Notes under the pieces: generated by a model
Databases searched by the model: none
What the model saw: only the letters and a program-made list of their open reading frames with translations
What the model was told of the DNA's origin: nothing
Translations under genes and position numbers: made by a program
Origin: an uncultured Acidobacteriota bacterium
GTDB taxonomy: Bacteria; Acidobacteriota; Thermoanaerobaculia; UBA5066; DATFVB01
Direction of reading: 5' to 3'
DNA: 64,000 bases
Assembly: GCA_963813155.1 (NCBI GenBank)
Contig: CAWEYG010000005.1
Coordinates: forward strand, 75,524 to 139,523
Shown: positions 7,151 through 34,260 of the stretch, in pieces
How positions within the stretch are numbered: the first letter of the stretch is position 1
Layout of the letters: the number at the start of each line of letters is the position of its first letter

Positions 7151-7675
7151 GCGCGCGATTCGCCAGACCCTACGCGGCCGCGCTGCTCCAGACGGCGCCT
7201 CCGAACTATGATTTCGGGAGTTTCCTCGCGTCCGTTCGCGCGATCGCCGACGCTCTCGCGGCCAGCGGCAGCCTGAGGTCGATCCTTTCGAATCCTTCGG
7301 TTGCGTTCGCGGCCAAAGAGGGGATCGTCGAGGCTCTTTCCGAGAAGGCGGGCCTCGACACGACTGGCCGAAGGTTCCTCCAGGTCGTCCTGCGGAACCG
7401 GCGGTTCCTCGGCCTGTCGGAGATCGCGGGCGCGATCGGAGAGGCGCTCGACGCGCGGGAAGGCGTCGTCCCGGCGAGCATCACCGCCGCGGGAGTGCTT
7501 GCCGCCCCCGACGCCGACCGCGTTGCCGCGGCCCTGTCGGGCGCGGTCGGAAAGAAAGTTCGCGCGACCTTCGAAGTCGACGCGAACCTCCTCGCGGGCT
7601 TCGTGGCCCGCGTCGGATCCAGGATCTACGACGCCTCCGCCCTCGGAGCGCTCGAAAAATTTAAGGAAGAAACGC

Positions 7676-7686
<11 letters not shown>
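7147..7686 (+). CDS. atpH: F0F1 ATP synthase subunit delta (OSCP)
   Basis: [17 protein letters not shown]...; ATGA overlap with the b subunit; located upstream of alpha. Confidence 0.8.
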
Positions 7687-9208
<1,522 letters not shown>

Positions 9209-21379: not shown

Positions 21380-22915
21380 AAACCGCCGAGAAACCGAACC
21401 GCGTCGCTCCGCTCGAAATGGACCCCGAGGAGTTTCGCCGCCTCGGGCGGCGTGTCGTCGACCGCGTCGCCGATTTCCTCGCCTCGCTTCCCGAGCGACG
21501 GGTTACTCCCGGCGAGACGCCCCGGCAGCTTCGGAAGCTTCTCGGGGAAGGCCTCCCTGCCGCTGCGCGGAGCGAATGCCGAAGGATTGCTGGACGAGGC
21601 CGCGCAGCTTCTCATCGAACACTCGCTCTTCAACGGCCACGCCCGGTTCTGGGGCTACATCACTTCTTCGGCGGCGCCGATCGGAGCGCTCGCGGATCTC
21701 CTCGCTGCCGCCGTCAACCCGAACGTCGGCGCGTTCGGGCTCGCGCCGATCGCGACCGAGATCGAGCTTCAGACGATTCGCTGGATCGCGGAGATGATCG
21801 GTTTCCCGGCGGACTGTGGCGGCCTTCTCGTCTCGGGAGGCAACATGGCGAACTTCGTCGGCTTTCTCGCCGGCCGCCGCGCGAAGGCGCCGTGGGACAT
21901 CCGCGGATCGGGGAGCTCCGGCGGCCCGAAGATGTGCGCCTACGCGTCGGAAGAGACTCACACGTGGGTCAAGAAAGCGGCGGACCTCTTCGGCCTCGGG
22001 ACGGATTCTCTCCGGTGGATTCCCGTCGATTCCGGCTACCGGCTTCGCGTTGACGCCCTTCGAGCGGCGATCCGTGAAGACCGCGCCGCCGGATACGTCC
22101 CCTTCCTCGTGGTCGGGACGGCGGGGTCGGTTTCGACCGGCGCGATCGATCCGCTTCCGGAGATCGCCGCCGTCGCCTCCGAGGAGAACCTCTGGTTCCA
22201 CGTGGACGGCGCGTACGGCGGGCTGGCCGCGGTGCTTCCCGACGCGCCCGCCGCGCTGCGGGGCTTGTCGCTGGCCGACTCGGTCGCGGTCGACCCGCAC
22301 AAATGGCTCTACGCGCCCGTCGAAGCCGGATGCACGCTCGTGCGCGACAGGGCCGCCCTGGAGGACACGTTTGCCTATCGCCCCCCCTACTACCACTTCG
22401 AGGAAGAGGACGAGGCCGTGAACTTCTACGAGCGGGGGCCCCAGAACTCGCGGGGATTCCGCGCCCTGAAGGTCTGGCTCGGCCTTCGTCAGGCGGGGCG
22501 GGAAGGATACGAACGGATGATCGCCGACGACATCGCGCTCGCGCAGAGGCTCTTCGAGAAGGCGGCCGCGACCCCCGAGATCGAGACGTTCACGCGAGAC
22601 CTTTCGATCGCGACGTTCCGATTCGTGCCCGAGCGGCTTGCCGGAGCGGGGGCAGAGCACGGCGAATACCTCGATCAATTGAATACCGAGCTCCTCACGC
22701 GCCTCCAGAATGGCGGGGAAGCCTACGTCTCCAACGCCGTCCTCGGCGGGCGATTCGTGCTCCGCGCCTGCATCGTGAATTTCCGCACCCGATCGAGCGA
22801 TGTCGACGCGCTGCCGGATCTGGTGGTTCGGATCGGCCGCGAGGTCGACCGGGACCTCCGGGAGAAAGCGGAAGGCCGGCCCGGCATCCCCGAGGGAAGG
22901 AGAACGAATGGCTGA
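21376..22915 (+). pseudogene. Group II pyridoxal-dependent (aromatic-L-amino-acid/glutamate-type) decarboxylase with a +1 frameshift near 21547
   Basis: N-terminus MKTAEKPNRVAPLEMDPEEFRRLGRRVVDRVADFLASLPERRVTPGETPRQLRKLLGEG in frame 1; the rest (LPLRGANAEGLLDEAAQLLIEHSLFNGHARFWGY...DPHKWLYAPVEAGC...) in frame 2. Removing one G from the GGGG run at 21544-21547 restores a single ~510-aa ORF. Confidence 0.8.
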
Positions 22916-24080
22916 GCCGGTCTGGGCCGATCTGGGCTCCGTGGAAAAGCTGAAAGAAGAGCTGAAGAAGAAGCCGCTTGCGCAGCTGAAGGTCGGCCGC
23001 ACGCCGATCGCGCTGACGTACCGCAACGGGGAATTCTCCGCCGTCTCGGGAGTCTGCAACCATGTCGGCGGCCCGCTCGGCGAGGGGCGACTCGACGGGG
23101 ATTACATCGTCTGTCCGTGGCACAACTACAAGTTTCACTTTCGGACGGGCGAAGGGGAGCCGGGGTACGAGGAGGACAGGGTCCCGAGCTACGCGCTGCG
23201 GGTCGAAGGCGGTCGTCTCCTCGTCAACCTGACTCCGGCGACGCCGCGGCACAAGGTGATGCACGATCCGCATCCGCTCGAGAGGCCGTTGGCTCGGGCA
23301 GATGGCCCGACCCGCGTGCTCGGCATCTCGACGACGGCGATGGACACGGCGAACCCGCGCTATTCGACTTCCGACGCGCTTCTCGAAGCCGCGCTTGCGC
23401 ATGCCTCCGGCGGCCTCGGGGCGGAGACGAAGCTGCTGAGACTGACGGAGCTTTCTTTCCGGACCTGCGAGGGTTACTACTCGAAAAGCGCGCACGCCTG
23501 CACGTGGCCCTGCTCGATCACGCAGATGGACCCGAACGACCAGATGGACCAGGTGTACGACGCGATCATCTTCTGGGCCGACGTGATCCTCGTCTCGACG
23601 CCGATCCGCTGGGGCTCGGCGAGCTCGCTCTATTTCAAGATGGTCGAGCGGATGAACTGCGTCCAGAACCAGATCACTCTTCGCGACCGCGTGATGATTC
23701 GCAACAAGGTCGCGGCCTTCATCATCACGGGCGGACAGGACAACATCCAGGCGGTCGCGGGAGAAATGCTCGGTTTCTTCGCCGAGATCGGATGCCTCTT
23801 TCCGCAGTTCCCCTACATCGCGCACTCGCGGGGCTGGTCCGCCGAAGACATGGAAAACAACATCTCCTACGTCCAGAAGAGCAGGGCGCTGAAGGAGGGC
23901 GCGGAGTCGCTCGTCGAGAGAGCGGTCGCGTTTTCCCGGACGATCGTGGAAACGACGCCGGCGCCGGAAAAAGTCATGCGCGCCGGCCGAAAGGCCGACG
24001 GCCTCGACAACGCGGCGATGGGAGCGAACCTGCTCGCCGGGATGGCCGACGAAGGCGCCCCGAGGGACGAACCGAAGTGA
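22908..24080 (+). CDS. Rieske [2Fe-2S] domain fused to an NADPH-dependent FMN reductase / flavodoxin-like domain
   Basis: CNHVGGPLGEG...CPWHNYKF (Rieske Cys-X-His...Cys-X-X-His) in the first ~100 aa, then the flavodoxin-like fold LGISTTAMDTANPRYSTSDALL...IFWADVILVSTPIRWGSASSLYFKMVERMN...AAFIITGGQDN. Strong RBS GGGAAGGAGAACGAATG; 8-nt overlap with the decarboxylase. Confidence 0.7.
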   Translation: MAEPVWADLGSVEKLKEELKKKPLAQLKVGRTPIALTYRNGEFSAVSGVCNHVGGPLGEGRLDGDYIVCPWHNYKFHFRTGEGEPGYEEDRVPSYALRVEGGRLLVNLTPATPRHKVMHDPHPLERPLARADGPTRVLGISTTAMDTANPRYSTSDALLEAALAHASGGLGAETKLLRLTELSFRTCEGYYSKSAHACTWPCSITQMDPNDQMDQVYDAIIFWADVILVSTPIRWGSASSLYFKMVERMNCVQNQITLRDRVMIRNKVAAFIITGGQDNIQAVAGEMLGFFAEIGCLFPQFPYIAHSRGWSAEDMENNISYVQKSRALKEGAESLVERAVAFSRTIVETTPAPEKVMRAGRKADGLDNAAMGANLLAGMADEGAPRDEPK

Positions 24081-24946
24081 GCGGAGAGTGGCGGCGCCTC
24101 GGGGGCGTCGATCCGAAGGAGCTCTCGGCGGCGCGTCTCGATGTCCATTACGCCGCCCAGATCGTTTCCGCGATCGGCATCACGCACCTTCCCCACCAGC
24201 CCGACGACAGCCACACGAATCTGGAATGGATTCCTTCGAATGAAGCCTTCGGTGGGAACCTCGTTGGCGGATCGCGCGCGTTTCGAGGGGCGCTGCGGCC
24301 CGGCGACTTCACGCTGATGCTGCTCGACGAAGCGGGCCACCGGGAAAGAAAATTGCCTCTTTCGGAGAAGACCCTCGACGAAGGGTACGTCTGGATGGCG
24401 GAGGTGATCGCGGCGGAGACCGGAAAGCCGATGAAACCTCTGGAGCGGCCGGCGTACGAGCTCCCGGAGCACGCCGTCGCGGAGGGCTCTCGTTTTTCGG
24501 TGCCGATGGAGGAGTTCCGCGAGATTGGCCGCTGGTACGGAAACGCGGCCTCGCTCCTGATTTCCCTGATGGGAGAATTTTCCGAAGCCTCTTCCGTTCG
24601 CTGCTGGCCGCACCACTTCGACATCGCGATTCTCCTGACGCTCGGGGAGGGAAAGACGATCGGTCTCGGCCTCTCGCCCGGCGACGCGAGCTACGCGGAG
24701 CCGTACTGGTACGTCACGCCCTACCCGTATCCGAAGAACCCGGAATTGCCGCCGCTTCCGGAAAAGGGGCGCTGGCACACGGAGGGTTTCTTCGCGGCGG
24801 TCCTGACCGGATCGGATCTCCTGTCCGGGGATCTCGGCGACCCAGCGGCAGCGGTCGGAGATTTTTCTTCGCGCGGCCACTCCAAGGCTGTCGCCGCTTC
24901 CTGGAATAGGAAGGCTCTTCGCTACTTCTGGCCGGCTGTGACCTGA
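24077..24946 (+). CDS. Hypothetical protein (GTG start overlapping the previous stop)
   Basis: GTGA overlap at 24077-24080; 289-aa protein-like composition (WPHHFDIAILLTLGEGK..., PYWYVTPYPYPKNPELPPLPEKGRWH); no recognisable motifs. Confidence 0.5.
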   Translation: MSGEWRRLGGVDPKELSAARLDVHYAAQIVSAIGITHLPHQPDDSHTNLEWIPSNEAFGGNLVGGSRAFRGALRPGDFTLMLLDEAGHRERKLPLSEKTLDEGYVWMAEVIAAETGKPMKPLERPAYELPEHAVAEGSRFSVPMEEFREIGRWYGNAASLLISLMGEFSEASSVRCWPHHFDIAILLTLGEGKTIGLGLSPGDASYAEPYWYVTPYPYPKNPELPPLPEKGRWHTEGFFAAVLTGSDLLSGDLGDPAAAVGDFSSRGHSKAVAASWNRKALRYFWPAVT

Positions 24947-27900
24947 GGGATCGGCGCCGTCGTGTCGGACCGGTGGGCCGATTCGATCTCCTCGTGCGAG
25001 GGAAGGTTCGAATGCCCCGAGTGGAAGAACGTCGTGCGGTTCAGCACCTTTTCCTGGAATTCCTCGAGGTAGAGGTAGATCACGGGCGTGACGAACAGCG
25101 TGATGAACTGCGACACGACGAGGCCGCCGACGATGACGAGCCCGAGAGGCCGCCGCGACGCTCCGTCCGCGCCGAAGCCGAGCGCGATGGGAAGCGCGCC
25201 GAAGATCGCCGCGAGCGTCGTCATCAGGATCGGCCGGAACCGGTCCATGCTCGCGTCGTGGATCGCCTGCACCGCCGACTCGCCGCGATCGACGCGTTGG
25301 CGGGCGAAGTCGACGATCATGATCCCGTTCTTCTTGACGATTCCCATCAACATGAACATTCCGACGAACGCGTACAGAGAAGCCTGCTGCCGGAAGATCA
25401 GGAGCGTGAGCAATCCTCCGACGAGCGCCGTCGGGAGCGTCGAGAGAACCGTCAAGGGGTGAACGTAGCTCTCGTAGAGGATCGCGAGGATCACGTACAT
25501 CACGAAGACCGCGAGGATCATCAGGACGGTGAGGTCCCGGACGGTGTTCCTGAACGTCTCCGCCTCGCCCTGAAGGCTCGCGCGAATGCCGGCCGGGACG
25601 ACTTCATGGGCCGTCTTGGCGATGAAATCTGTCGCCGGCCCGAGCGCGACGCCCGGCTTGAGGTTGAAGAAGATCGTGACGCTCGTGAACTGGTTCAGGT
25701 GGTTGACGGCCTGCGGGCCGAGAGATTGTTTCCAGGTGACGAGCTCCCGAAGCGGGACGAGATTCGCCCCGTCGTCGGACTTGATGTAGAGCAGGGAAAG
25801 GTTGTCCGCCTTCTCGCGGCCCTTGTCCTCGACTTCGAGGATGACCTGGTACTGATCGGCGGGTTTCTTGATCAGGTAGACATAGTTCTGAGAATAGGCG
25901 TTGCGAAGGAGAGCGAGGATCCGAGCCTCGGAAACGCCGTACGTCTTGGCTTGATCCCGCCGGATCTCGACGTCGAGGTTCGGCGTGTTGTTGAAGAAAT
26001 CGGACGAGACGGTTTGAAATCCGGGATACTCCCGCAGTTTTGCCATGAGCTTTGTCGAAGCGTCGTAGACCTCCCCGGCGTTCACGCCGGACAGGGAATA
26101 GGCGTACTGTCCCTGGGCCTGGTTCGTCGCTCCGGTCGAGATCTGAAGGACGGGAAAGGGCTGCAGGAACGCAAAGGTCCCCGGGACCGAGCCGATCTCG
26201 CCCATGAGCTTGCCCGCTTCCTGATCGATCGGCGGCCGCTGCCCGGGGGGCTTCAGGAACGTGAAGATGAATCCCTGGTTGGAAGGGAGAAATCCGGAGA
26301 TTCCCGCGACCGAAATCGTCGCGCGGATATTCGGGTCGCGCCAGAGCACGTCGCTCACGTTCTGCTGGATCGCGCGCATCTGGTCGGGGGAGGAGCCCTC
26401 TTTCCCGAGGAAGACGCCGTTGATCACGCTGCTGTCGCCGGTCGGCAGAAAGGCCTTCGGAACCACGTAGAAGAGACCGACGGTCCCGGCGAGGCAGAGC
26501 ACCCAGATCAGCGCGGAGAGCCTCCGGCGCTCGAGAAACCACGTGAGGGAGGATCCGTATTTTCCGAGCACCCGCTTTTCGACGCCGCCGATCACGCGTT
26601 CGATCCAGGTCTGCCGGACGTCCTTGCCGCGGGGCTTCAGGAGCCGCGCGCACATCAGCGGCGTCAGAGTCAGGGAAACCAGGCCGGACGCGAGGATCGA
26701 CACGACGATCGTGACCGCGAATTCGCGGAAGATCCGCCCGACGAGTCCCGACATCAGGAGGAGCGGCAGGAACACCGCCGCGAGCGAGATCGTCATCGAG
26801 AGAATCGTGAAACTGATCTCTTTGGCGCCGTTCAGCGAGGCGAGCAGGGCCGGCTCGCCGCGCTCCATCCGGCGAACGGTGTTCTCGAGAAAGACGATCG
26901 CATCGTCGACCAGAAACCCGATCGCGAGCACGAGAGCCATCAGCGAGAGGTTGTCGAGGCTGTAGCCGAGCGCCCGCATCGCCATGAACGTCAGCAGCAG
27001 GGAAAGCGGAAGCGCGACCGCCGGGATCAGCGTGTCGGTCGCCCGGCCGAGAAAGAAGAAGATCACCAGAACCACGAGAACGAAAGCGATGACGAGTGTT
27101 GCCTGAACGTCGTTGACGGAGTTGACGATGCTTTGCGCGCGGTCGTAGATCGGCGTGACGCGCACCGAGCCGGGCAGCTCCGCGCTGATGACGGGCAGCA
27201 GATTTCGGATACTGCGCGAGACCTCGACGGCGTTGGCTCCCGCCTGGCGGTTGACCGCGACGACGACCGTCGCCGACGGAATCGGATAGCCCTTGACCCA
27301 GAAGCGCATGCTGATGCGCTCGTCCTGGAGCGAGTTCGTCACGGTCGCAACGTCGCGCAGGCGCACCGCCGCCCCGTTCTTCGAACCGACGATCAGGTCG
27401 TCGTAGGCCCGCGCCGTGTCGAGCTGCCCCTGGGGGTTCAGCAGCAGGGTGCCGGAGGCGCTGTCGAGCTGGCCCGCGCCGGTGTAGCTCGTGCCGTTCT
27501 TGATGGCGGCGGCGAGATCGTCCACGGAAATGCCGCGGGCCCACATCGCGGAAGGGTCCGCCTTGATGCGAATCGCCGATTTCGTTCCGAACACGTTGAC
27601 CCGCGAAACGCCCGGAAGGATGCTGATCCGCTGGCCGACCTGCGTGCTTCCGTAGTCGTAGAGCGCGCCGGGAGTGACCGACTCGCTCGTCAGGGCGATG
27701 TACATGATCGGCTGGTCGTTGGGGTTCGTCTTGGAAAACGTCGGCGGCGACGGGAGGTCGACGGGAAGGCTCCCGGTCGCCTGCGAGATGGCCGTCTGAA
27801 CGTCGGTCGCGGCCGCGTCGATGCTCTTTCCCAGCGCGAACTGAAGCGTCAGGCTCGTGTTTCCCTGCGTGCTTTTCGACGTGACGATCTCGAGGCCGTT

Positions 27901-28122
27901 GATCTGCATGAACTGGCGCTCGAGCGGCGTCGCGATGTTGTTGGCCATCGTGTCGGGGCTCGCCCCGGGGTAGCTCACCTGAACCTGGATGACGGGATAG
28001 TCGACCGCCGGAAGGTCGTTGACCGGCAGCTGGCGGTAGCAGAGAACGCCGAAGAGAATGACGGAGACGGTCAGGACCGCCGTCATCACCGGCTTTCGGA
28101 TGAAGGGCTCGGACAGGTTCAC
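24922..28122 (-). CDS. Multidrug efflux RND transporter permease subunit (AcrB/HAE1 family)
   Basis: 1066 aa; MNLSEPFIRKPVMTAVLTVSVILFGVLCYRQLPVNDLPAVDYPVIQVQVSYPGASP...; 12-TM architecture with two large periplasmic loops. Confidence 0.92.
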   Translation of the reverse strand: MNLSEPFIRKPVMTAVLTVSVILFGVLCYRQLPVNDLPAVDYPVIQVQVSYPGASPDTMANNIATPLERQFMQINGLEIVTSKSTQGNTSLTLQFALGKSIDAAATDVQTAISQATGSLPVDLPSPPTFSKTNPNDQPIMYIALTSESVTPGALYDYGSTQVGQRISILPGVSRVNVFGTKSAIRIKADPSAMWARGISVDDLAAAIKNGTSYTGAGQLDSASGTLLLNPQGQLDTARAYDDLIVGSKNGAAVRLRDVATVTNSLQDERISMRFWVKGYPIPSATVVVAVNRQAGANAVEVSRSIRNLLPVISAELPGSVRVTPIYDRAQSIVNSVNDVQATLVIAFVLVVLVIFFFLGRATDTLIPAVALPLSLLLTFMAMRALGYSLDNLSLMALVLAIGFLVDDAIVFLENTVRRMERGEPALLASLNGAKEISFTILSMTISLAAVFLPLLLMSGLVGRIFREFAVTIVVSILASGLVSLTLTPLMCARLLKPRGKDVRQTWIERVIGGVEKRVLGKYGSSLTWFLERRRLSALIWVLCLAGTVGLFYVVPKAFLPTGDSSVINGVFLGKEGSSPDQMRAIQQNVSDVLWRDPNIRATISVAGISGFLPSNQGFIFTFLKPPGQRPPIDQEAGKLMGEIGSVPGTFAFLQPFPVLQISTGATNQAQGQYAYSLSGVNAGEVYDASTKLMAKLREYPGFQTVSSDFFNNTPNLDVEIRRDQAKTYGVSEARILALLRNAYSQNYVYLIKKPADQYQVILEVEDKGREKADNLSLLYIKSDDGANLVPLRELVTWKQSLGPQAVNHLNQFTSVTIFFNLKPGVALGPATDFIAKTAHEVVPAGIRASLQGEAETFRNTVRDLTVLMILAVFVMYVILAILYESYVHPLTVLSTLPTALVGGLLTLLIFRQQASLYAFVGMFMLMGIVKKNGIMIVDFARQRVDRGESAVQAIHDASMDRFRPILMTTLAAIFGALPIALGFGADGASRRPLGLVIVGGLVVSQFITLFVTPVIYLYLEEFQEKVLNRTTFFHSGHSNLPSHEEIESAHRSDTTAPIPQVTAGQK

Positions 28123-29210
28123 GAGTGGGGCCCCGCGACGGCGACCTTTCCGCCGGGCGTGACGGCGAGCTGGCCGTTGACGACGACGCGTTCACCCGCT
28201 TTCAGGCCCTTCTCGATCACGACGAGGGCTTCCTGGGTTTGTCCCGGCACGATCGGGCGCAGCTCGGCCGTCGAATCGGCGGCCACGACGTAGACGAACG
28301 GTCCTTTTGCGGACACCTGGAGAGCCGTTGCGGGAACGAGCACGGCGCCCTTCAGCGTCGCGAGCACGAGACGGACCTTGACGAACCTTCCCGGCCAGAG
28401 CCGATGCTCCCGATTGGGAACGGTGGCCCGCAGGGTGACCGTTCCCGTCGATTCCTGAACGGTGTTGTCGAGAAACGTGAGCGTTCCCGCGAGCGGCTTT
28501 CCGGGCTCGTCGGGAAGGCGAACTTCCACTTTCAGGTCTCCGCGCGCCATGTGCTGCTGGACCTGCGACAGGTCGTTCTCCGTGACCGTGAAGTCGGCGT
28601 AGATCGGGTCGAGCCGCTCGATCGTCAGGAGCGAGGCGCCATTGGGGGCGACGACGTTCCCGAGGTCGACGAGGCGGTGGCCCGCGCGCCCGTCGATCGG
28701 GGAATGGATCGAGCAGTACTGGAGGTTCAGGCGCGCCGCCTTGACCGAGGCGTCCGCCTGCTGCACCTGGGCCTCGTCGACCTGGGCGGTGCTCTTTTTC
28801 GTGTCGTAGTCCGACTGAGAAACGAGCTGCGCCTTCAGGAGGTCCGCGGAGCGGGCGAGCTCCACGCGGGCGAGCTCGCGCGCGGCTTTCGCCTGCGCGA
28901 CATTCGCCTCCGCGGCGTCGAGCTGCGCCTGGTACGGCCGCGGATCGATCGTGAAGAGCAGGTCTCCGGACTTGACGTTCGCCCCGTCGGTGAAATGGAT
29001 CTCGGTGATGCGGCCGGATACCTGCGGGACGATCGAGACGACCTCGCGCGCGACGCACTTGCCGACTTCGTCGGCGTAAACAGGAACGTCCCGCGCGACG
29101 GCCGTTTCGACCGTGACGGGCGCGGGAGGCCGCTGAAAGGCCGCGGGATTATTCTTGCCGCGGCAGGCGCAGCCGAGCATCAACAGCAGGAGCAACTTCT
29201 TGTTTTTCAC
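28119..29210 (-). CDS. Efflux RND transporter periplasmic adaptor subunit (membrane fusion protein)
   Basis: Lipoprotein signal MKNKKLLLLLMLGCA; biotinyl/lipoyl-like and coiled-coil hairpin; ATGA-type overlap with the pump. Confidence 0.88.
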   Translation of the reverse strand: MKNKKLLLLLMLGCACRGKNNPAAFQRPPAPVTVETAVARDVPVYADEVGKCVAREVVSIVPQVSGRITEIHFTDGANVKSGDLLFTIDPRPYQAQLDAAEANVAQAKAARELARVELARSADLLKAQLVSQSDYDTKKSTAQVDEAQVQQADASVKAARLNLQYCSIHSPIDGRAGHRLVDLGNVVAPNGASLLTIERLDPIYADFTVTENDLSQVQQHMARGDLKVEVRLPDEPGKPLAGTLTFLDNTVQESTGTVTLRATVPNREHRLWPGRFVKVRLVLATLKGAVLVPATALQVSAKGPFVYVVAADSTAELRPIVPGQTQEALVVIEKGLKAGERVVVNGQLAVTPGGKVAVAGPHS

Positions 29211-29325
29211 GAGCTTTTCGGCCTCAGATCATTTCCACATTCGAAGGACAGCATCGGCGTCCGTTTCCATACGGTCTTGAACCTCTCCGGTTTCATTTTA
29301 TATTTCATTTCGAACGACTTGCGGG

Positions 29326-30900
29326 CTACCTTTTCGAAATGAAGCTCCACGGGCTGGTCGGCTTTTGCGGCGGCATCGACGGGGAGACGACGGCGTCGAT
29401 TTCCGCGCGGTGGTCTTTCAGGAGGCGCCGAACGGGGACTCCGTCGGCGCCGCGCTCGAGGATTTCGGCGGCCGACTCGTCCATTTTCGCGAGAAACGCC
29501 TCCCATCGGGCCTCGGAAACCGGCATCCCCCGGAAACGCACGTTCGAAAGCTTCGCGAATTCGCGCGTCAGGTATTCGATCTTCGTCTTGATCTCGCCTT
29601 CCGGCGCGAGCGACTCGCTTTCGTAGGGAGTGTGCGGCTTCGGGATGAACGCGTTGACCGAGGGGACGATCGTGGCCATCCGTCCCGTCGATTTCGCTTC
29701 GGCGAGCGCGATGTCGTGGCAATCGGACACGAGGCGCACGAGGTCGCGCACGTCTTCTTCGGTTTCCGAAGGAAGCCCGATCTGCAGATAGAGCTTCAGG
29801 TTGGTGAAGCCGTTCTGGAAGATCATACGGACCTTCTCCCGGAGCATCGAGTCGGAGACCTTCTTGTTGATGTGGCGGCGCAACCGCTCGTTTCCCGCTT
29901 CCGGTGCGATCGAGAGAGACTTTTCGCCTTGCCGCGCGAGGATCGCGAGGATCTCGGGCCGAATCGCGTCGATCTTGATCGACGAAAGAGCGATGTGGAA
30001 CTCGAGCTCGGCGAGCCCGGAGAGGATCGTCTCGATCTCCGGGTGATCGCAGACGGCCGTCGCGATCAGGCCCGCGCGATCCGTGAAGCGGCGCCCGTTC
30101 CGGGCCGTCGCGAGGATCGAGGAGGCGGGATACTGCTTGATCGGCGCCATTGCGTACGCCGCCCAGCAGAACTTGCACATTTCCGTGCAGCCGCGCGAGA
30201 TTTCGATCAGAAGCTTGTCGGAGAGCTCGGTCCGGGGCGTGAGGATGGAAGTGTGCGGGACTTCGTAGTCGGGTCCGATTTCCTTTCGGGACATCGCCTG
30301 CTGGATGACGATTTTGCCGTCCATCGAGCCCTCGGCGCGGGGACCCTGGACGGCGGGAACGAAGAGCCCGGGCACCTTCGCGGCTTCTTCCAGGAACTGC
30401 GACCGGTTGAGACCGCGCTTGAGGAGATTCGAGAGAGGGAGAACGAGCTTCTCTCCATCTCCCATCGCGAAGATGTCGAGAAACGGGGTCAGGGGGGCTG
30501 GATTGATCCGCGAACAGTCGCCTCCGATGAGGAGAATCGGGTGGCGCTCGTCACGGTCGCGAGCCCTCCGCGGAATCCGCGAGAGGTCGAGGGTCTTCAG
30601 GAGATTGAGGTAGTCCATTTCCCAGGAGACCGACCAGGCGAGCAGGCCGAATTCCGAAAGCGGCGTTCGCGATTCCAGGGTCTCCGCCGGGGCTCCGGCC
30701 TCGTAGAAAAACCGCTCGCACACGACATCCTCGACGCGGTTGAAAAGACGCAGCACCCACTGGAAGCCGAGATTCGACATCCCGACTTCGTAGGAGTTCG
30801 GGAACCCGAGCGCGACGCGGTACGCGCCGAATCGCTTCGGCTCCTCGAGGGGCCTTTCCGACGCGAGTCGGGCTCGTCGATTCTCTTCGTATCCCGGCAT
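29326..30900 (-). CDS. Radical SAM protein (TIGR03960-like uncharacterised radical SAM family)
   Basis: CxxxCxxC motif ISRGCTEMCKFCWAAY; start at the internal ATG that follows the YceI gene stop. Confidence 0.65.
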   Translation of the reverse strand: MPGYEENRRARLASERPLEEPKRFGAYRVALGFPNSYEVGMSNLGFQWVLRLFNRVEDVVCERFFYEAGAPAETLESRTPLSEFGLLAWSVSWEMDYLNLLKTLDLSRIPRRARDRDERHPILLIGGDCSRINPAPLTPFLDIFAMGDGEKLVLPLSNLLKRGLNRSQFLEEAAKVPGLFVPAVQGPRAEGSMDGKIVIQQAMSRKEIGPDYEVPHTSILTPRTELSDKLLIEISRGCTEMCKFCWAAYAMAPIKQYPASSILATARNGRRFTDRAGLIATAVCDHPEIETILSGLAELEFHIALSSIKIDAIRPEILAILARQGEKSLSIAPEAGNERLRRHINKKVSDSMLREKVRMIFQNGFTNLKLYLQIGLPSETEEDVRDLVRLVSDCHDIALAEAKSTGRMATIVPSVNAFIPKPHTPYESESLAPEGEIKTKIEYLTREFAKLSNVRFRGMPVSEARWEAFLAKMDESAAEILERGADGVPVRRLLKDHRAEIDAVVSPSMPPQKPTSPWSFISKR

Positions 30901-30944
30901 GAACCCTTGATTATAAGGGATTTTCGGCGCTTTCGCGCGGCCGG

Positions 30945-31574
30945 CTAGTTCTCGGCGACGGCCCAGAGGTGGAAGATGACGGTCAGAGGATCCTGGATCC
31001 GGTTGAAGACCGTCGACATGTTTCGAAGGCCGTACTGCTTCCAGTGGATCGGCACGGCGCCGGCAACCAGGATGTGGTCCTCGAGCACGGCGCACTGAAC
31101 CGACGCCTGGAGCGGTTTGCTCACTCCGTGGATGACGACGTCGGCGGAGAGCTCCACCGTTACGGTCGAGCCGGGGCCGAACCCCGACAGATTTCCCTTG
31201 TAGCTCTTTCCTTCGAACACGATCTCCGGGAACTGCGAAGCCTCCAGGACCTTGTCGCGCAGGACGGCGTTGCGGCGCGCATTCCCGGTCTCAAGCGAAT
31301 CCGCGCGAAAACCGATTCGGGAACGAAGAACTCCGGGGTTTCTCGGATCCACTTCCGCGCTTCCGCTCCACGATCCGATCGTTCCGTGGACGAGGTGAAA
31401 CGTGGTCGGAAGCTCGAAGGAGATTTTCGATTTCTCTGGCACGAAACGGTACTTCAGGACGCGGGGAGGCGGGGCGAGAGCGACAGGCGCGTCGGTCGAC
31501 GAGCCGCCGCCCGTCTGGGCGAACGCGGGAGCGCAGGCCAGAATCGCGAGCGGAATCCAGCGAAAGAACTTCAC
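30945..31574 (-). CDS. YceI-like (polyisoprenoid-binding) periplasmic protein
   Basis: Signal peptide VKFFRWIPLAILACAPAFAQ; YceI-like beta-barrel length (~210 aa); GTG start. Confidence 0.6.
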   Translation of the reverse strand: MKFFRWIPLAILACAPAFAQTGGGSSTDAPVALAPPPRVLKYRFVPEKSKISFELPTTFHLVHGTIGSWSGSAEVDPRNPGVLRSRIGFRADSLETGNARRNAVLRDKVLEASQFPEIVFEGKSYKGNLSGFGPGSTVTVELSADVVIHGVSKPLQASVQCAVLEDHILVAGAVPIHWKQYGLRNMSTVFNRIQDPLTVIFHLWAVAEN

Positions 31575-31584
31575 GCGCGTAATA

Positions 31585-33063
31585 CTAGCAGGCGCCGGGT
31601 TCCGGCACGATCGGGTACGGATGGTCCTCGAAGACTCGCGGCCGGATGCCGCGGAACGGATCGACGATCCGGCGAAGCCGCGGAAGCACCCTCCACCGCG
31701 GCCGGGGAAGTGGGAGGTACATGCACCAGCGCGTGAGCCGTTCGACGACCGGCTGTTGCGCTTCGAAAGAGTTGACGACGTTCCGGTGCTCACGGCCGAA
31801 CCGTGAAAGCTCCTCGAGGTACCACTCCCGCGGCAGCTCGGGGGAGAAATAGAAGAACGGCTCGAGCAGGTTCGCGTCCGGCGCAATCAGCCCTTCGGCC
31901 CGAAGGATGCGCTCCAGACCCGTCCGCGGATAGACCCGCACGCCGTTGGTGATGTAGACGAGGTCCGACGGCGGGATCCGACGATCGATGAAGTCGAACG
32001 TCTCGGCGACGGTGTCCGGGTTCTCCCCGGGCGAGCCGACGAGAAAGACCCACACGGCCGGAATTCCGTGGCGGGGCAGCCACCGCGCGATCTTCTCGAC
32101 ATCGGCCCGGCCGAAACCCTTCTGCATTCGCTTCAGGACCGAATCCGACGCCGACTCCACGGTGCACGTCGTCGCGACGAAGCCGCCCTTTTTCATCAGC
32201 GCGACGAGCTCCTCGGTGACGCCGACCGGATTGAAACCCGCCGCGGTGAGGCGGACCTTGAGGCCGCGAGCGAGAATTCCGTTCAGGATTCCGCGCGCCT
32301 GCACCGGAGGATGGGAGAAGACCGCGTCCACGAACTCGAAGAATTCGGCGCCGAGGGAATTCGCGCGCGCGATTTCCTCCACCACCTCCGGGACGGGACG
32401 GAACCGGTAGCGAACTCCCTCGAGCGTCCCGTACGTGCAATACGTGCAGGTGAACCCGCAACCCCTCTTCGTCTGGATGGGAAACACTCCTTCGCGCCGC
32501 ATGTACGTCTTCATGTCGAGATGACGGAAGAGGTCGGGGTCGGGAAGGCCGTCGATCGGCTCGGAGGAATGGAGGGCGTTGTGGAGGAGCCGGCCGCTGC
32601 GGCGGACGACGAGCCCCGGAATGTCGTCGAACGGGATCCCGGCCGCCCAGCGTCGGAGCAGATCGGGAAAGCGCTTCTCGGCGTCGCCGTAGAGAATCGC
32701 GTCCGGCGAGACTTCTTCGAAGACTCGAACCGGCTCAATGGCCGCGCCCGCGCCCCCGAGGATGAGGGGAGCGGCGGTGATTCGCCGAAGGCGCGAGAAG
32801 AGCTCGCAAATCTCGGGAACGAAGTACTTCGTTCCGATCAGGTCGGAGTTGTCGACGTTCCGCATCGATACCCCGACGAAATCGGGGCGAAAATCGTCGA
32901 TCACCCGCTTCAGTGGAAGCGAGGAGTCCTCCTCCCACATCAGGTCGACGACGCGCGCTTCGATCCCGTCTCTCTCGAGCTGCGCGGCCACCAGGCAAGG
33001 ACCGACCGGCACCACGGGGTAGGGCGTCCGTTCCCGGTTCGTCGAAACGAGGAGGACCTTCAC
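31585..33063 (-). CDS. B12-binding domain-containing radical SAM protein (candidate methyltransferase)
   Basis: N-terminal B12-binding Rossmann-like region MKVLLVSTNRERTPYPVVPVGPCLVAA..., radical SAM cysteine triad RGCGFTCTYCTY; 492 aa. Confidence 0.8.
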   Translation of the reverse strand: MKVLLVSTNRERTPYPVVPVGPCLVAAQLERDGIEARVVDLMWEEDSSLPLKRVIDDFRPDFVGVSMRNVDNSDLIGTKYFVPEICELFSRLRRITAAPLILGGAGAAIEPVRVFEEVSPDAILYGDAEKRFPDLLRRWAAGIPFDDIPGLVVRRSGRLLHNALHSSEPIDGLPDPDLFRHLDMKTYMRREGVFPIQTKRGCGFTCTYCTYGTLEGVRYRFRPVPEVVEEIARANSLGAEFFEFVDAVFSHPPVQARGILNGILARGLKVRLTAAGFNPVGVTEELVALMKKGGFVATTCTVESASDSVLKRMQKGFGRADVEKIARWLPRHGIPAVWVFLVGSPGENPDTVAETFDFIDRRIPPSDLVYITNGVRVYPRTGLERILRAEGLIAPDANLLEPFFYFSPELPREWYLEELSRFGREHRNVVNSFEAQQPVVERLTRWCMYLPLPRPRWRVLPRLRRIVDPFRGIRPRVFEDHPYPIVPEPGAC

Positions 33064-33073
33064 TTCGGATCTC

Positions 33074-34195
33074 TCATCGAATGCCGAAAACCCAGTCGGC
33101 GACGTTGGTGCCCGTGATCCCCGGGCGAAACCGGTCGCCGAGTGTGTCGAAGAATGCGGCGGAATCGTGGCGAAGGAGAAAGTCCGGCGCCGAGAGCCGC
33201 AGCTTTCGCGCGCGGTCGATCGTCGTGCCGTCGGCGAAAGCGCCCGCGTTTCCCGAATTGCCGTCGATCCCGTCCGAGCCGCAGGCGAGCAACCCGGGCG
33301 CGCTTCCGGCGAGCTCCTGAGCGGCGGCGAGCGCGAACTCCTGGCTTCGCCCGCCGGTTCCGGAACGAGAAGGGCGCCGAACCGTCGTCTCTCCCCCCGC
33401 GAGGAGAACCCGGGGCGACCGGCGCGCGCAAAGCCGCGCGGCGAACGCCCGTCCCTGCGCGGCGGCCTCGCCCGAAAGGGAAACGCGCTCGATTCGCGCG
33501 GAGAGTCCGCGCGCGCGGGCGAAACGGGCGGCGGCCTCGAGTCCCGTCCGGTTCCCGGCGAGAAGCCACGTTCGGTCGCGCGGTTTGCGGCTGCTCACAG
33601 TCGGTCCCGAGCCGACGATGCGAAAGTCCCCTTCCGGCACGTCGGACAGAACGAGCGTCACGACGCGGGCCCGGGTCGCGTCGGCGAGCCTGCCCCCCTT
33701 CACGAGAGAGAGGGATGTTCGTAGCCGGTTGATTTGCTGAATCGGCCATCCTTTCTCCATCGCGCGCCGGATCCTTCGCTGTTTCTCTGCAAGGGTCACG
33801 CCGCGTCGCGGAAGGCAGAGGAGCGAGGAAGTTCCTCCCGAAACGAGGGCAAGCACGAGATCGCCCTCGTCGAAACGGCGAAAGAACCGGAGCGCCGCCT
33901 TCGCGGCGGCGAGGCTCTCCCGGTCGGGGTCCGGGTGGGAGGCAAAGCGGGTAAAACGCCGGAGACGGGGGAGAACGCGCGATCCGTGCGGGACGACGAT
34001 GAGCGCGTCGTGAAAAGTTTTTCGGGGGACGCCCGCGGCCATTCCGGCGGCAGCTTTTCCCGAAGCGAAAACGCCGATTCTCTCGCCCGAAAGATCGAGC
34101 TTTCCCGACCGGAAGAATTCGGCGACGAGCGCCTCCGGATCGACGGCGGAAAGCGCCGCTTTCCAGAGCTCGCGGAGCAGCCGCCGGCCTTCCAC
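33074..34195 (-). CDS. Glycerate 2-kinase (MOFRL family / hydroxypyruvate reductase TtuD-like); start uncertain (GTG 34195 or ATG 34255)
   Basis: LVSGGTSSLL...VLLAGGETTV...LACGSDGIDGNS motifs of the MOFRL glycerate kinase family. The ATG at 34255 would lie only 5 bp from the divergent gene's start. Confidence 0.65.
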   Translation of the reverse strand: MEGRRLLRELWKAALSAVDPEALVAEFFRSGKLDLSGERIGVFASGKAAAGMAAGVPRKTFHDALIVVPHGSRVLPRLRRFTRFASHPDPDRESLAAAKAALRFFRRFDEGDLVLALVSGGTSSLLCLPRRGVTLAEKQRRIRRAMEKGWPIQQINRLRTSLSLVKGGRLADATRARVVTLVLSDVPEGDFRIVGSGPTVSSRKPRDRTWLLAGNRTGLEAAARFARARGLSARIERVSLSGEAAAQGRAFAARLCARRSPRVLLAGGETTVRRPSRSGTGGRSQEFALAAAQELAGSAPGLLACGSDGIDGNSGNAGAFADGTTIDRARKLRLSAPDFLLRHDSAAFFDTLGDRFRPGITGTNVADWVFGIR

Positions 34196-34260
34196 TCCGG
34201 CATTCTCGCCGATTCGGTTCCCCGGCCGCGAGTTCTTGGGATTTCCGCTCTTCACGGATA

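Follow-up and report, generated by a model that had tools for sequence, protein, structure and literature searches.

Six closely spaced genes on one strand raise the question of whether they form a single functional system. Such a run is found on the minus strand at positions 24922-34255 of the stretch analysed here, 64,000 nucleotides of contig CAWEYG010000005.1 from an uncultured member of the Acidobacteriota (hereafter the window). It encodes a MOFRL-type kinase-like protein, a B12-binding radical SAM enzyme (hereafter the B12 enzyme), a YceI-family protein, a second radical SAM protein resembling TIGR03960, and the adaptor and pump of an RND efflux system. An initial annotation had suggested that the whole run could be a locus that modifies a lipid and exports it. 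The six co-directional genes are real, their domain labels were confirmed by Pfam and NCBIfam, and all six proteins belong to known superfamilies; the proposed six-gene system, in contrast, does not exist as a unit. The explanation that we favour, and consider probable as a whole, is that three independent units share a strand and that the first of these, a trio comprising the kinase-like protein, the B12 enzyme and YceI, could act on a hydrophobic molecule. Taken separately, it is very probable that the six genes do not make up one system and that the pump is unrelated to the rest; that the B12 enzyme and YceI act on a lipid is proposed tentatively. The features concerned are as follows.

33074-34255, minus strand: MOFRL/DUF4147 protein, glycerate-2-kinase-like, first gene of the conserved trio (Pfam and the list of open reading frames, ORFs)
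31585-33063, minus strand: B12-binding radical SAM enzyme, core of the conserved module (Pfam, NCBIfam)
30945-31574, minus strand: YceI-family protein with a signal-like N-terminus, third gene of the conserved trio (Pfam)
29326-30900, minus strand: TIGR03960-like radical SAM protein with Radical_SAM_N2 and Radical_SAM domains (Pfam, NCBIfam)
29211-29325, no strand: intergenic region of 115 nt, visibly poorer in G+C, that divides the radical SAM genes from the efflux operon
28119-29210, minus strand: RND periplasmic adaptor lipoprotein, MdtA/MuxA-like, with a lipobox-like motif (NCBIfam)
24922-28122, minus strand: RND inner-membrane pump of the HAE1 multidrug type, MdtB/MdtC-like (Pfam, NCBIfam)
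within 22800-24080, and 24113-24946, plus strand: two genes of the same block as the pump, for a Rieske/FMN-reductase protein and a 277-aa hypothetical protein

Organisation and conservation of the block

In the arrangement that we propose, the MOFRL, B12 radical SAM and YceI genes would make up a small operon with 10-nt gaps, the TIGR03960-like radical SAM gene would stand alone as a second unit, and the third would be an MdtA/MdtBC-like efflux pair with its own upstream region, part of a block of about 6 kb. The B12 enzyme would catalyse the cobalamin-dependent radical alkylation, most likely C-methylation, of a polyketide- or acyl-derived hydrophobic molecule or lipid made elsewhere in the genome, and the secreted YceI protein would bind the product in the periplasm.

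Six genes on the same strand are nothing statistically remarkable on a bacterial chromosome. The short gaps between them, first given as 11, 11, 45 and 116 nt, are present and measure 10, 10, 44 and 115 nt, with a 4 nt overlap between the adaptor and pump genes. From this spacing, co-transcription would be supported for the first three or four genes only, and the 115-nt gap of lower G+C is a unit boundary.

Metagenomic proteins from Thermoanaerobaculia/Acidobacteriota are the nearest relatives of the B12 enzyme. The closest locus, L011 (contig CAVZCI010000003.1), is about 88-90% identical to the window at the DNA level, and L001 (GCA_050747885.1) about 75-83%; the B12 enzyme itself is 94% identical in L011, 86% in L001, 74% in L002 and 72% in L097. 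A neighbour-joining tree of 90-odd homologues placed the Thermoanaerobaculia proteins in two subclades, A (at least 72% identical to the window enzyme) and B (53-57%). In all eight assessable subclade-A loci the MOFRL gene adjoins the B12 enzyme gene and a YceI gene lies downstream of it; the corresponding counts for subclade B are 4/6 and 0/7. The MOFRL-B12 radical SAM-YceI trio is therefore conserved in all assessable close relatives. A scan of metagenomes returned five short contigs only, informative for the MOFRL, YceI and TIGR03960-like genes and not for the pump.

Only the window, L001 and L011 have the pump and adaptor beside the radical SAM genes. Both are missing at the syntenic position in L002 and L097. 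A closer inspection of L002 showed that the TIGR03960-like gene is followed directly by a gene for a pyridoxal phosphate decarboxylase, which in the window lies beyond the pump block, and in L097 other genes follow the TIGR03960-like gene. The plus-strand Rieske/FMN-reductase and 277-aa hypothetical genes accompany the pump in L001 and L011 (in L001 one orthologue has Rieske and FMN_red domains and the other no Pfam match) and are likewise absent from L002 and L097. The adaptor, pump, hypothetical and Rieske/FMN-reductase genes therefore constitute one indel of about 6 kb, present in L001/L011 and absent from L002/L097. Judged by this distribution, the block would have arrived or been retained in the genus-level lineage of the window, and its juxtaposition with the radical SAM genes appears to be recent. 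Neighbourhood conservation thus held for the trio (8/8 loci at identities of at least 72%) and did not extend to the pump block, absent at 72-74%. Moreover, the junction is interrupted in the closest relative, where L011:13945-15135 (equivalent to window 29230-29326) spans 1,190 nt between flanking alignments against about 96 nt in the window. The extra sequence of about 1.1 kb contains opposite-strand ORFs that resemble, by eye, an MNT nucleotidyltransferase antitoxin and a HepT/DUF86 toxin (both putative). Since L011 carries this insert, co-transcription across the 115-nt junction is not required.

With regard to the 277-aa plus-strand ORF (24113-24946), it has no Pfam match and is convergent with the pump gene, sharing 25 nt with the 3′ end of the latter. 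The ORF is kept with the pump in L001 and L011 at 75-88% identity.

The proteins of the efflux pair do not resemble a lipid exporter. The pump matched ACR_tran (PF00873) with 937.8 bits over residues 5-1019 and RND_permease_2 with 1052 bits, and aligned end to end with the MdtC (890 bits) and MdtB (875 bits) models, below the MdtB/MdtC equivalog cutoffs of 1584/1774. The comparison with HpnN, the example given with the suggestion of lipid export, yielded 24.3 bits over about 100 residues (TIGR03480, HAE3; cutoff 751.85), and that suggestion is not supported. The adaptor exceeded the cutoff of TIGR01730 (283.8 bits against 94.9) and scored 253 bits with MdtA/MuxA; the lipobox-like motif MLGC was seen in its translation. 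By family scores the two would be a tripartite-type HAE1 multidrug RND pair and not an adaptor-less HAE3 lipid transporter.

The TIGR03960-like protein also stands apart. It contains Radical_SAM_N2 (123 bits) and Radical_SAM (63 bits) domains and aligned with TIGR03960 at 273.5 bits (residues 27-482 on model positions 30-512 of 605), below the cutoff of 462.3. Its gene immediately follows YceI in the window, L001, L011, L097 and L093; in L002 an opposite-strand RtcB gene parts the two, and in L009 the gene lies 3.6 kb away, beyond malate synthase. It was not found beside B12 enzyme homologues in any locus outside the Thermoanaerobaculia. It is a separate syntenic neighbour at the level of the lineage only, and its inclusion in a lipid locus is not borne out.

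Family and predicted chemistry of the B12 enzyme

The B12 enzyme has the architecture of a class B radical SAM protein, with a B12-binding domain at residues 14-135 (PF02310, 36.5 bits, cutoff 32.1) followed by a radical SAM domain at 198-359 (PF04055, 75.5 bits). The CxxxCxxC motif (C202/C206/C209) is invariant across 30 homologues of the enzyme, and an RN.D motif of its cobalamin domain is likewise invariant. Its best NCBIfam match was TIGR04072 ("lipid biosynthesis B12/radical SAM"), at 280 bits over residues 2-437 and under the cutoff of 360. Nine relatives, including those linked to polyketide synthases (PKS) or ketoacyl synthases (KAS), also scored below that cutoff (256-339 bits). The second-best family was BzaD (148 bits, cutoff 450), and a TsrM-type model gave 94 bits (cutoff 500). 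The scores fell further for HpnJ (65.1 bits, cutoff 577.6), for HpnR (TIGR04367, 55.7 bits over a partial alignment of residues 19-239, cutoff 650) and for BchE (43.6 bits, cutoff 481.35). No model named for HpnP was among the 24 NCBIfam matches, the presence of such a model in the library being unconfirmed. The proposed kinship with the hopanoid methylase HpnR was thus not upheld, the HpnJ comparison failing likewise, and an identity as BchE was rejected.

The closest solved structure is that of TsrM (6wte), with an E-value of 7e-23 for the single sequence and 6e-61 for the family profile. An arginine of the window enzyme (R68) that aligns with TsrM R69 is invariant in the family, and the position of TsrM E273 is occupied by valine. 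In TsrM we take R69 to sit beneath the cobalt and E273 to block the unique iron by ligating the cluster. Because the latter position is a valine, normal binding of S-adenosylmethionine to the cluster would presumably not be blocked. The window enzyme would thus probably bind cobalamin in the manner of TsrM but retain conventional radical initiation, and not the polar mechanism of TsrM. Since the nearest characterised relatives, TsrM and BzaD, are C-methylases, we infer C-methylation as its reaction. On sequence grounds the enzyme is a new member of class B radical SAM, in an uncharacterised clade related to TsrM, BzaD and TIGR04072.

Membrane-spanning lipid synthases of the Mss/Tes type were also considered and set aside, the best relatives of the enzyme being methylases. 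No model named Tes, Mss, Gms, Gmm or GrsA/B was among its NCBIfam matches. Homologues of Mss are reported to be absent from cultured Acidobacteria (PMC13159169); Gms is an enzyme of the SPASM/Twitch type and Gmm is MoeK5-like (PMC11214058).

A hopanoid substrate is also poorly matched by what is known of the lineage. The source organism belongs to the Thermoanaerobaculia, Acidobacteriota subdivision 23 (SD23). Neither shc nor any hpn gene is present in T. aquaticum, the SD23 type strain and the only cultured member of SD23 whose genome was examined (PMC5462960), which makes a hopanoid substrate unlikely. As to the earlier remark that HpnP and HpnR occur in Acidobacteria, their genes are reported for a single acidobacterium, Ca. 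Koribacter of subdivision 1 (SD1) (PMC5462960). No available test of the B12 enzyme identified it as a hopanoid methylase.

Neighbourhoods of B12 enzyme homologues in other phyla

Homologues from other phyla are about 36-42% identical to the window enzyme. Those of the Gemmatimonadota (68 loci) lie in a seven-gene cluster whose members were recovered in about 52-62 loci, depending on the gene. The order is DUF92, the radical SAM gene, a flavin adenine dinucleotide (FAD) oxidoreductase, a flavin reductase, a SAM methyltransferase, an SRPBCC/polyketide-cyclase-like protein and a ketoacyl synthase (L007:6790-13766 and about 60 others among L014-L088). A type III PKS gene is immediately adjacent in 7/7 loci from Nitrospirota, Thermodesulfovibrionales, Brocadiaceae and Deltaproteobacteria, at 36-39% identity (L058:10001-12489, L081:3526-6038, L027:10001-12556, L030, L041, L047 and L069). 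In the Planctomycetota all three loci have, on one strand, a ketoacyl synthase, the radical SAM gene, an FAD_binding_3 oxidoreductase and a YceI gene (L013:8739-13763, L012 and L044). To judge by gene content, the common theme of these neighbourhoods is a condensing enzyme with tailoring enzymes, which would point to polyketide- or acyl-derived lipids. A search of one literature library found no description of the recurring association of this clade with PKS/KAS and YceI.

Some of these loci have further genes of note. The cluster adjoins a COX15/CtaA gene in the Gemmatimonadota loci L006, L007 and L008, and in L006 also a UbiA-family gene. L027 contains a second B12 radical SAM gene, and a small radical SAM gene lies near that of L058.

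In the neighbour-joining tree the YceI-bearing Thermoanaerobaculia subclade does not have the Planctomycetota clade as its sister, and the association with YceI therefore arose or persisted independently in the two. The chance of finding YceI in two non-sister lineages was estimated, roughly, at about 1e-4 for a family with a few copies per genome. No other observation argues as strongly as this recurrence for a link between YceI and the product of the radical SAM enzyme, and for a hydrophobic product.

The YceI and MOFRL proteins

The YceI protein matched PF04264, a family of lipocalin-like proteins that bind lipids or polyisoprenoids, at residues 42-203 with 69.3 bits, above the cutoff of 23.7, and a hydrophobic, signal-like N-terminal sequence (VKFFRWIPLAILACAPAFAQ) was seen in its translation. 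In two subclade-B loci the YceI position, directly downstream of the B12 enzyme gene, is filled by a small protein with an FHA domain (L009:11541-12020, L096:8723-9202).

The MOFRL protein contains DUF4147 (178 bits) and MOFRL (101 bits) domains, and its relatives in the PDB are PH0495 (E-value 6e-44) and the glycerate kinase TM1585 (7e-40). The only equivalogs that it matched, two for archaeal glycerate-2-kinases, scored under their cutoffs (152/550 and 127/670 bits). Only 5 nt separate the first in-frame GTG (34255) from the ATG (34261) of a divergent gene of the peptidase-C45/AAT family. An alternative in-frame GTG at 34195 would give a protein of 373 aa, and the orthologue in L001 is called at 376 aa. 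The true start may therefore be GTG 34195, since GTG 34255 crowds the divergent ATG and the length in L001 fits the shorter protein better. MOFRL diverges fastest of the genes compared, at 59% identity in L001 against 86-95% for the radical SAM proteins, adaptor and pump, and 86% in L011 against 93-98% for its neighbours. In L002 and L094 the MOFRL gene shares 4 nt with the radical SAM gene. Most simply, the protein would be a glycerate-2-kinase-type enzyme that is co-transcribed with its neighbours.

Weighing the explanations

If all six genes formed one locus, a polyisoprenoid or hopanoid-type lipid would be methylated by an HpnP/HpnR-like enzyme, bound by YceI and exported by an HpnN-like pump. 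The genes do share a strand with short gaps, among curated families the one nearest to the B12 enzyme is associated with lipids, and the adjacency of YceI is conserved. However, the pump (24 bits on HpnN, cutoff 752) is MdtB/C-like with a tripartite-type adaptor, relatives at 72-74% keep the rest of the genes without the pump block, and the toxin-antitoxin-like insertion in L011 parts the two halves. The hopanoid component fares no better, given the HpnR (56/650) and HpnJ (65/578) scores, the lack of shc/hpn in T. aquaticum, the restriction of hpnP/R to one SD1 acidobacterium (PMC5462960) and a window without an isoprenoid or hopanoid gene. The single-locus model is largely refuted by the neighbourhood data, and we regard it as extremely improbable. 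What stands of the proposed lipid modification and export locus is a plausible link between the B12 enzyme, YceI and a hydrophobic substrate, given TIGR04072 as the nearest family and YceI in 8/8 close loci and in the Planctomycetota; a single six-gene modification and export system does not. A narrower pairing, in which MOFRL and the B12 enzyme act together on a metabolite derived from glycerate or another hydroxy acid, phosphorylation preceding or following alkylation, and YceI is a later lineage-specific addition, would account for MOFRL being kept more widely than any other neighbour (8/8 in subclade A, 4/6 in subclade B) and for the 4-nt overlap in L002 and L094. Yet no homologue from another phylum has MOFRL as a neighbour, the pair is broken up by opposite-strand genes in L095 and L096, and MOFRL evolves much faster than the B12 enzyme (59% against 86% in L001). 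We know of no characterised pathway that joins the two families, and consider this pairing very unlikely.

The trio might also be a matter of synteny, the B12 enzyme acting on a non-lipid substrate (a cofactor precursor, an aromatic amino acid or a peptide), MOFRL being a housekeeping glycerate kinase and YceI being unrelated. Such a reading is consistent with the closest characterised relatives, BzaD (148 bits) and TsrM (E-value 7e-23), both of which act on small aromatic substrates, and with a housekeeping region (mnmE/mnmG/parA, ATP synthase, pgk/tpi/secG) in which the flanking FtsX, ABC and AAT genes are equally syntenic within the subclade. In L009, moreover, MOFRL is near malate synthase, which would suit glyoxylate/glycerate metabolism. 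It is less easily reconciled with YceI beside the homologues of a second, non-sister lineage (3/3 in the Planctomycetota), which by the rough estimate above is hard to obtain by chance, with the consistent adjacency of PKS or KAS to homologues in four other phyla, or with 10-nt gaps and 4-nt overlaps, which indicate operon organisation. On balance it is a serious alternative that we think somewhat unlikely. Several observations nevertheless weigh against a lipid-directed trio. None of the clade members scored, whether close or distant, attains the TIGR04072 cutoff, and the clade has no biochemically characterised member. The sister Thermoanaerobaculia subclade (0/7) and the loci of Gemmatimonadota and Nitrospirota lack YceI, which is therefore not an obligate partner of the B12 enzyme. 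In two of the four subclade-B loci with the MOFRL-radical SAM pair (L095 and L096) an opposite-strand gene lies between the two, so that the pair may be mere conserved synteny. The 64-kb window contains no condensing enzyme, FAD oxidoreductase or other lipid gene, and the link to lipids accordingly comes from homologues that are only 37-42% identical. Between 24500 and 34700 no minus-strand promoter was found by a promoter scan, and terminator-like matches were at background level (13 against 8.9 ± 3.5); since these scans were uninformative, the transcription units are ones that we infer.

Genomic setting

The remainder of the window is ordinary chromosome, with mnmE, mnmG, parA, an F-type ATP synthase operon, peptidases, ABC transporters, pgk, tpi, secG and a tRNA-Leu gene. 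Its annotation includes no gene for squalene, hopanoid, isoprenoid or fatty-acid synthesis, and neither tblastn nor phmmer found a match in the window to the Gemmatimonadota partner genes or to type III PKS. An Rfam scan of the whole window found tRNA only; the radical SAM genes are not preceded by a cobalamin or SAM riboswitch. The ORF of the ATP synthase alpha subunit (7301-9208, plus strand) is 635 aa long, with the alpha domains starting at residue 150 and no Pfam domain in the N-terminal 150 residues, which may be a mis-called start or an extension.

Comparison with known systems

The B12 radical SAM protein of the ladderane-type fatty-acid clusters of anammox bacteria (TIGR04072) has the same two-domain architecture as the window enzyme, whose homologues also adjoin ketoacyl synthases and FAD oxidoreductases. 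Proteins of the TIGR04072 type lie beside FabF homologues and a phytoene-dehydrogenase-like enzyme, and have no demonstrated activity (PMC13459092). The window, in contrast, has no adjacent fatty-acid genes, and its enzyme scores 280 bits against the cutoff of 360. The cobalamin domain of the tryptophan 2-C-methyltransferase TsrM aligns over its full length with the window enzyme, whereas the genomic context of the latter is unrelated to thiostrepton or, with regard to the benzimidazole C-methylase BzaD, to cobamide synthesis. The hopanoid C-2 and C-3 methylases HpnP and HpnR share with it the broad class (B12-binding plus radical SAM) and act on lipids. As for the pump, the overlap of the adaptor and pump genes is typical of MdtABC/MuxABC operons, but there is a single pump gene in place of the MdtB and MdtC pair and no adjacent gene for an outer-membrane factor.

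The phenolic-lipid clusters srsABC of Streptomyces and arsABCD of Azotobacter combine a type III PKS with a methyltransferase and a flavin hydroxylase. By description, the sister clades of the window enzyme are similar in having PKS or KAS together with FAD_binding_3, SAM methyltransferase and SRPBCC proteins, whereas the window itself has neither PKS nor KAS. To our knowledge, srsABC and arsABCD contain neither a B12 radical SAM gene nor a YceI gene.

Implications

A hopanoid or isoprenoid locus, had it held, would bear on the sources of methylated lipid biomarkers, and the evidence does not support one. The block also serves as a caution: in a high-GC genome, neighbouring genes that share a strand and are closely spaced do not necessarily form one system. 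The value that remains is in a clade of B12 radical SAM enzymes tied to type III PKS or ketoacyl synthases in four further phyla, and independently to YceI in two lineages. This association merits follow-up; for the present window the evidence is indirect. It is doubtful, on what is available, that the window enzyme and its relatives, which span Thermoanaerobaculia, Planctomycetota, Nitrospirota/Thermodesulfovibrionales, Brocadiaceae and Gemmatimonadota, represent an undescribed cobalamin-dependent tailoring of polyketide- or acyl-derived membrane lipids with YceI proteins as dedicated periplasmic carriers. The products of such tailoring may include C-methylated alkylresorcinols, alkylquinones or branched alkyl lipids. 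If the clade does methylate phenolic, quinone or alkyl lipids, the cobalamin-dependent lipid chemistry of uncultured bacteria in soil and sediment would have a defined enzyme, YceI proteins would have a class of physiological ligand, and anaerobic Acidobacteriota would be a new source of methyl-branched lipid biomarkers.

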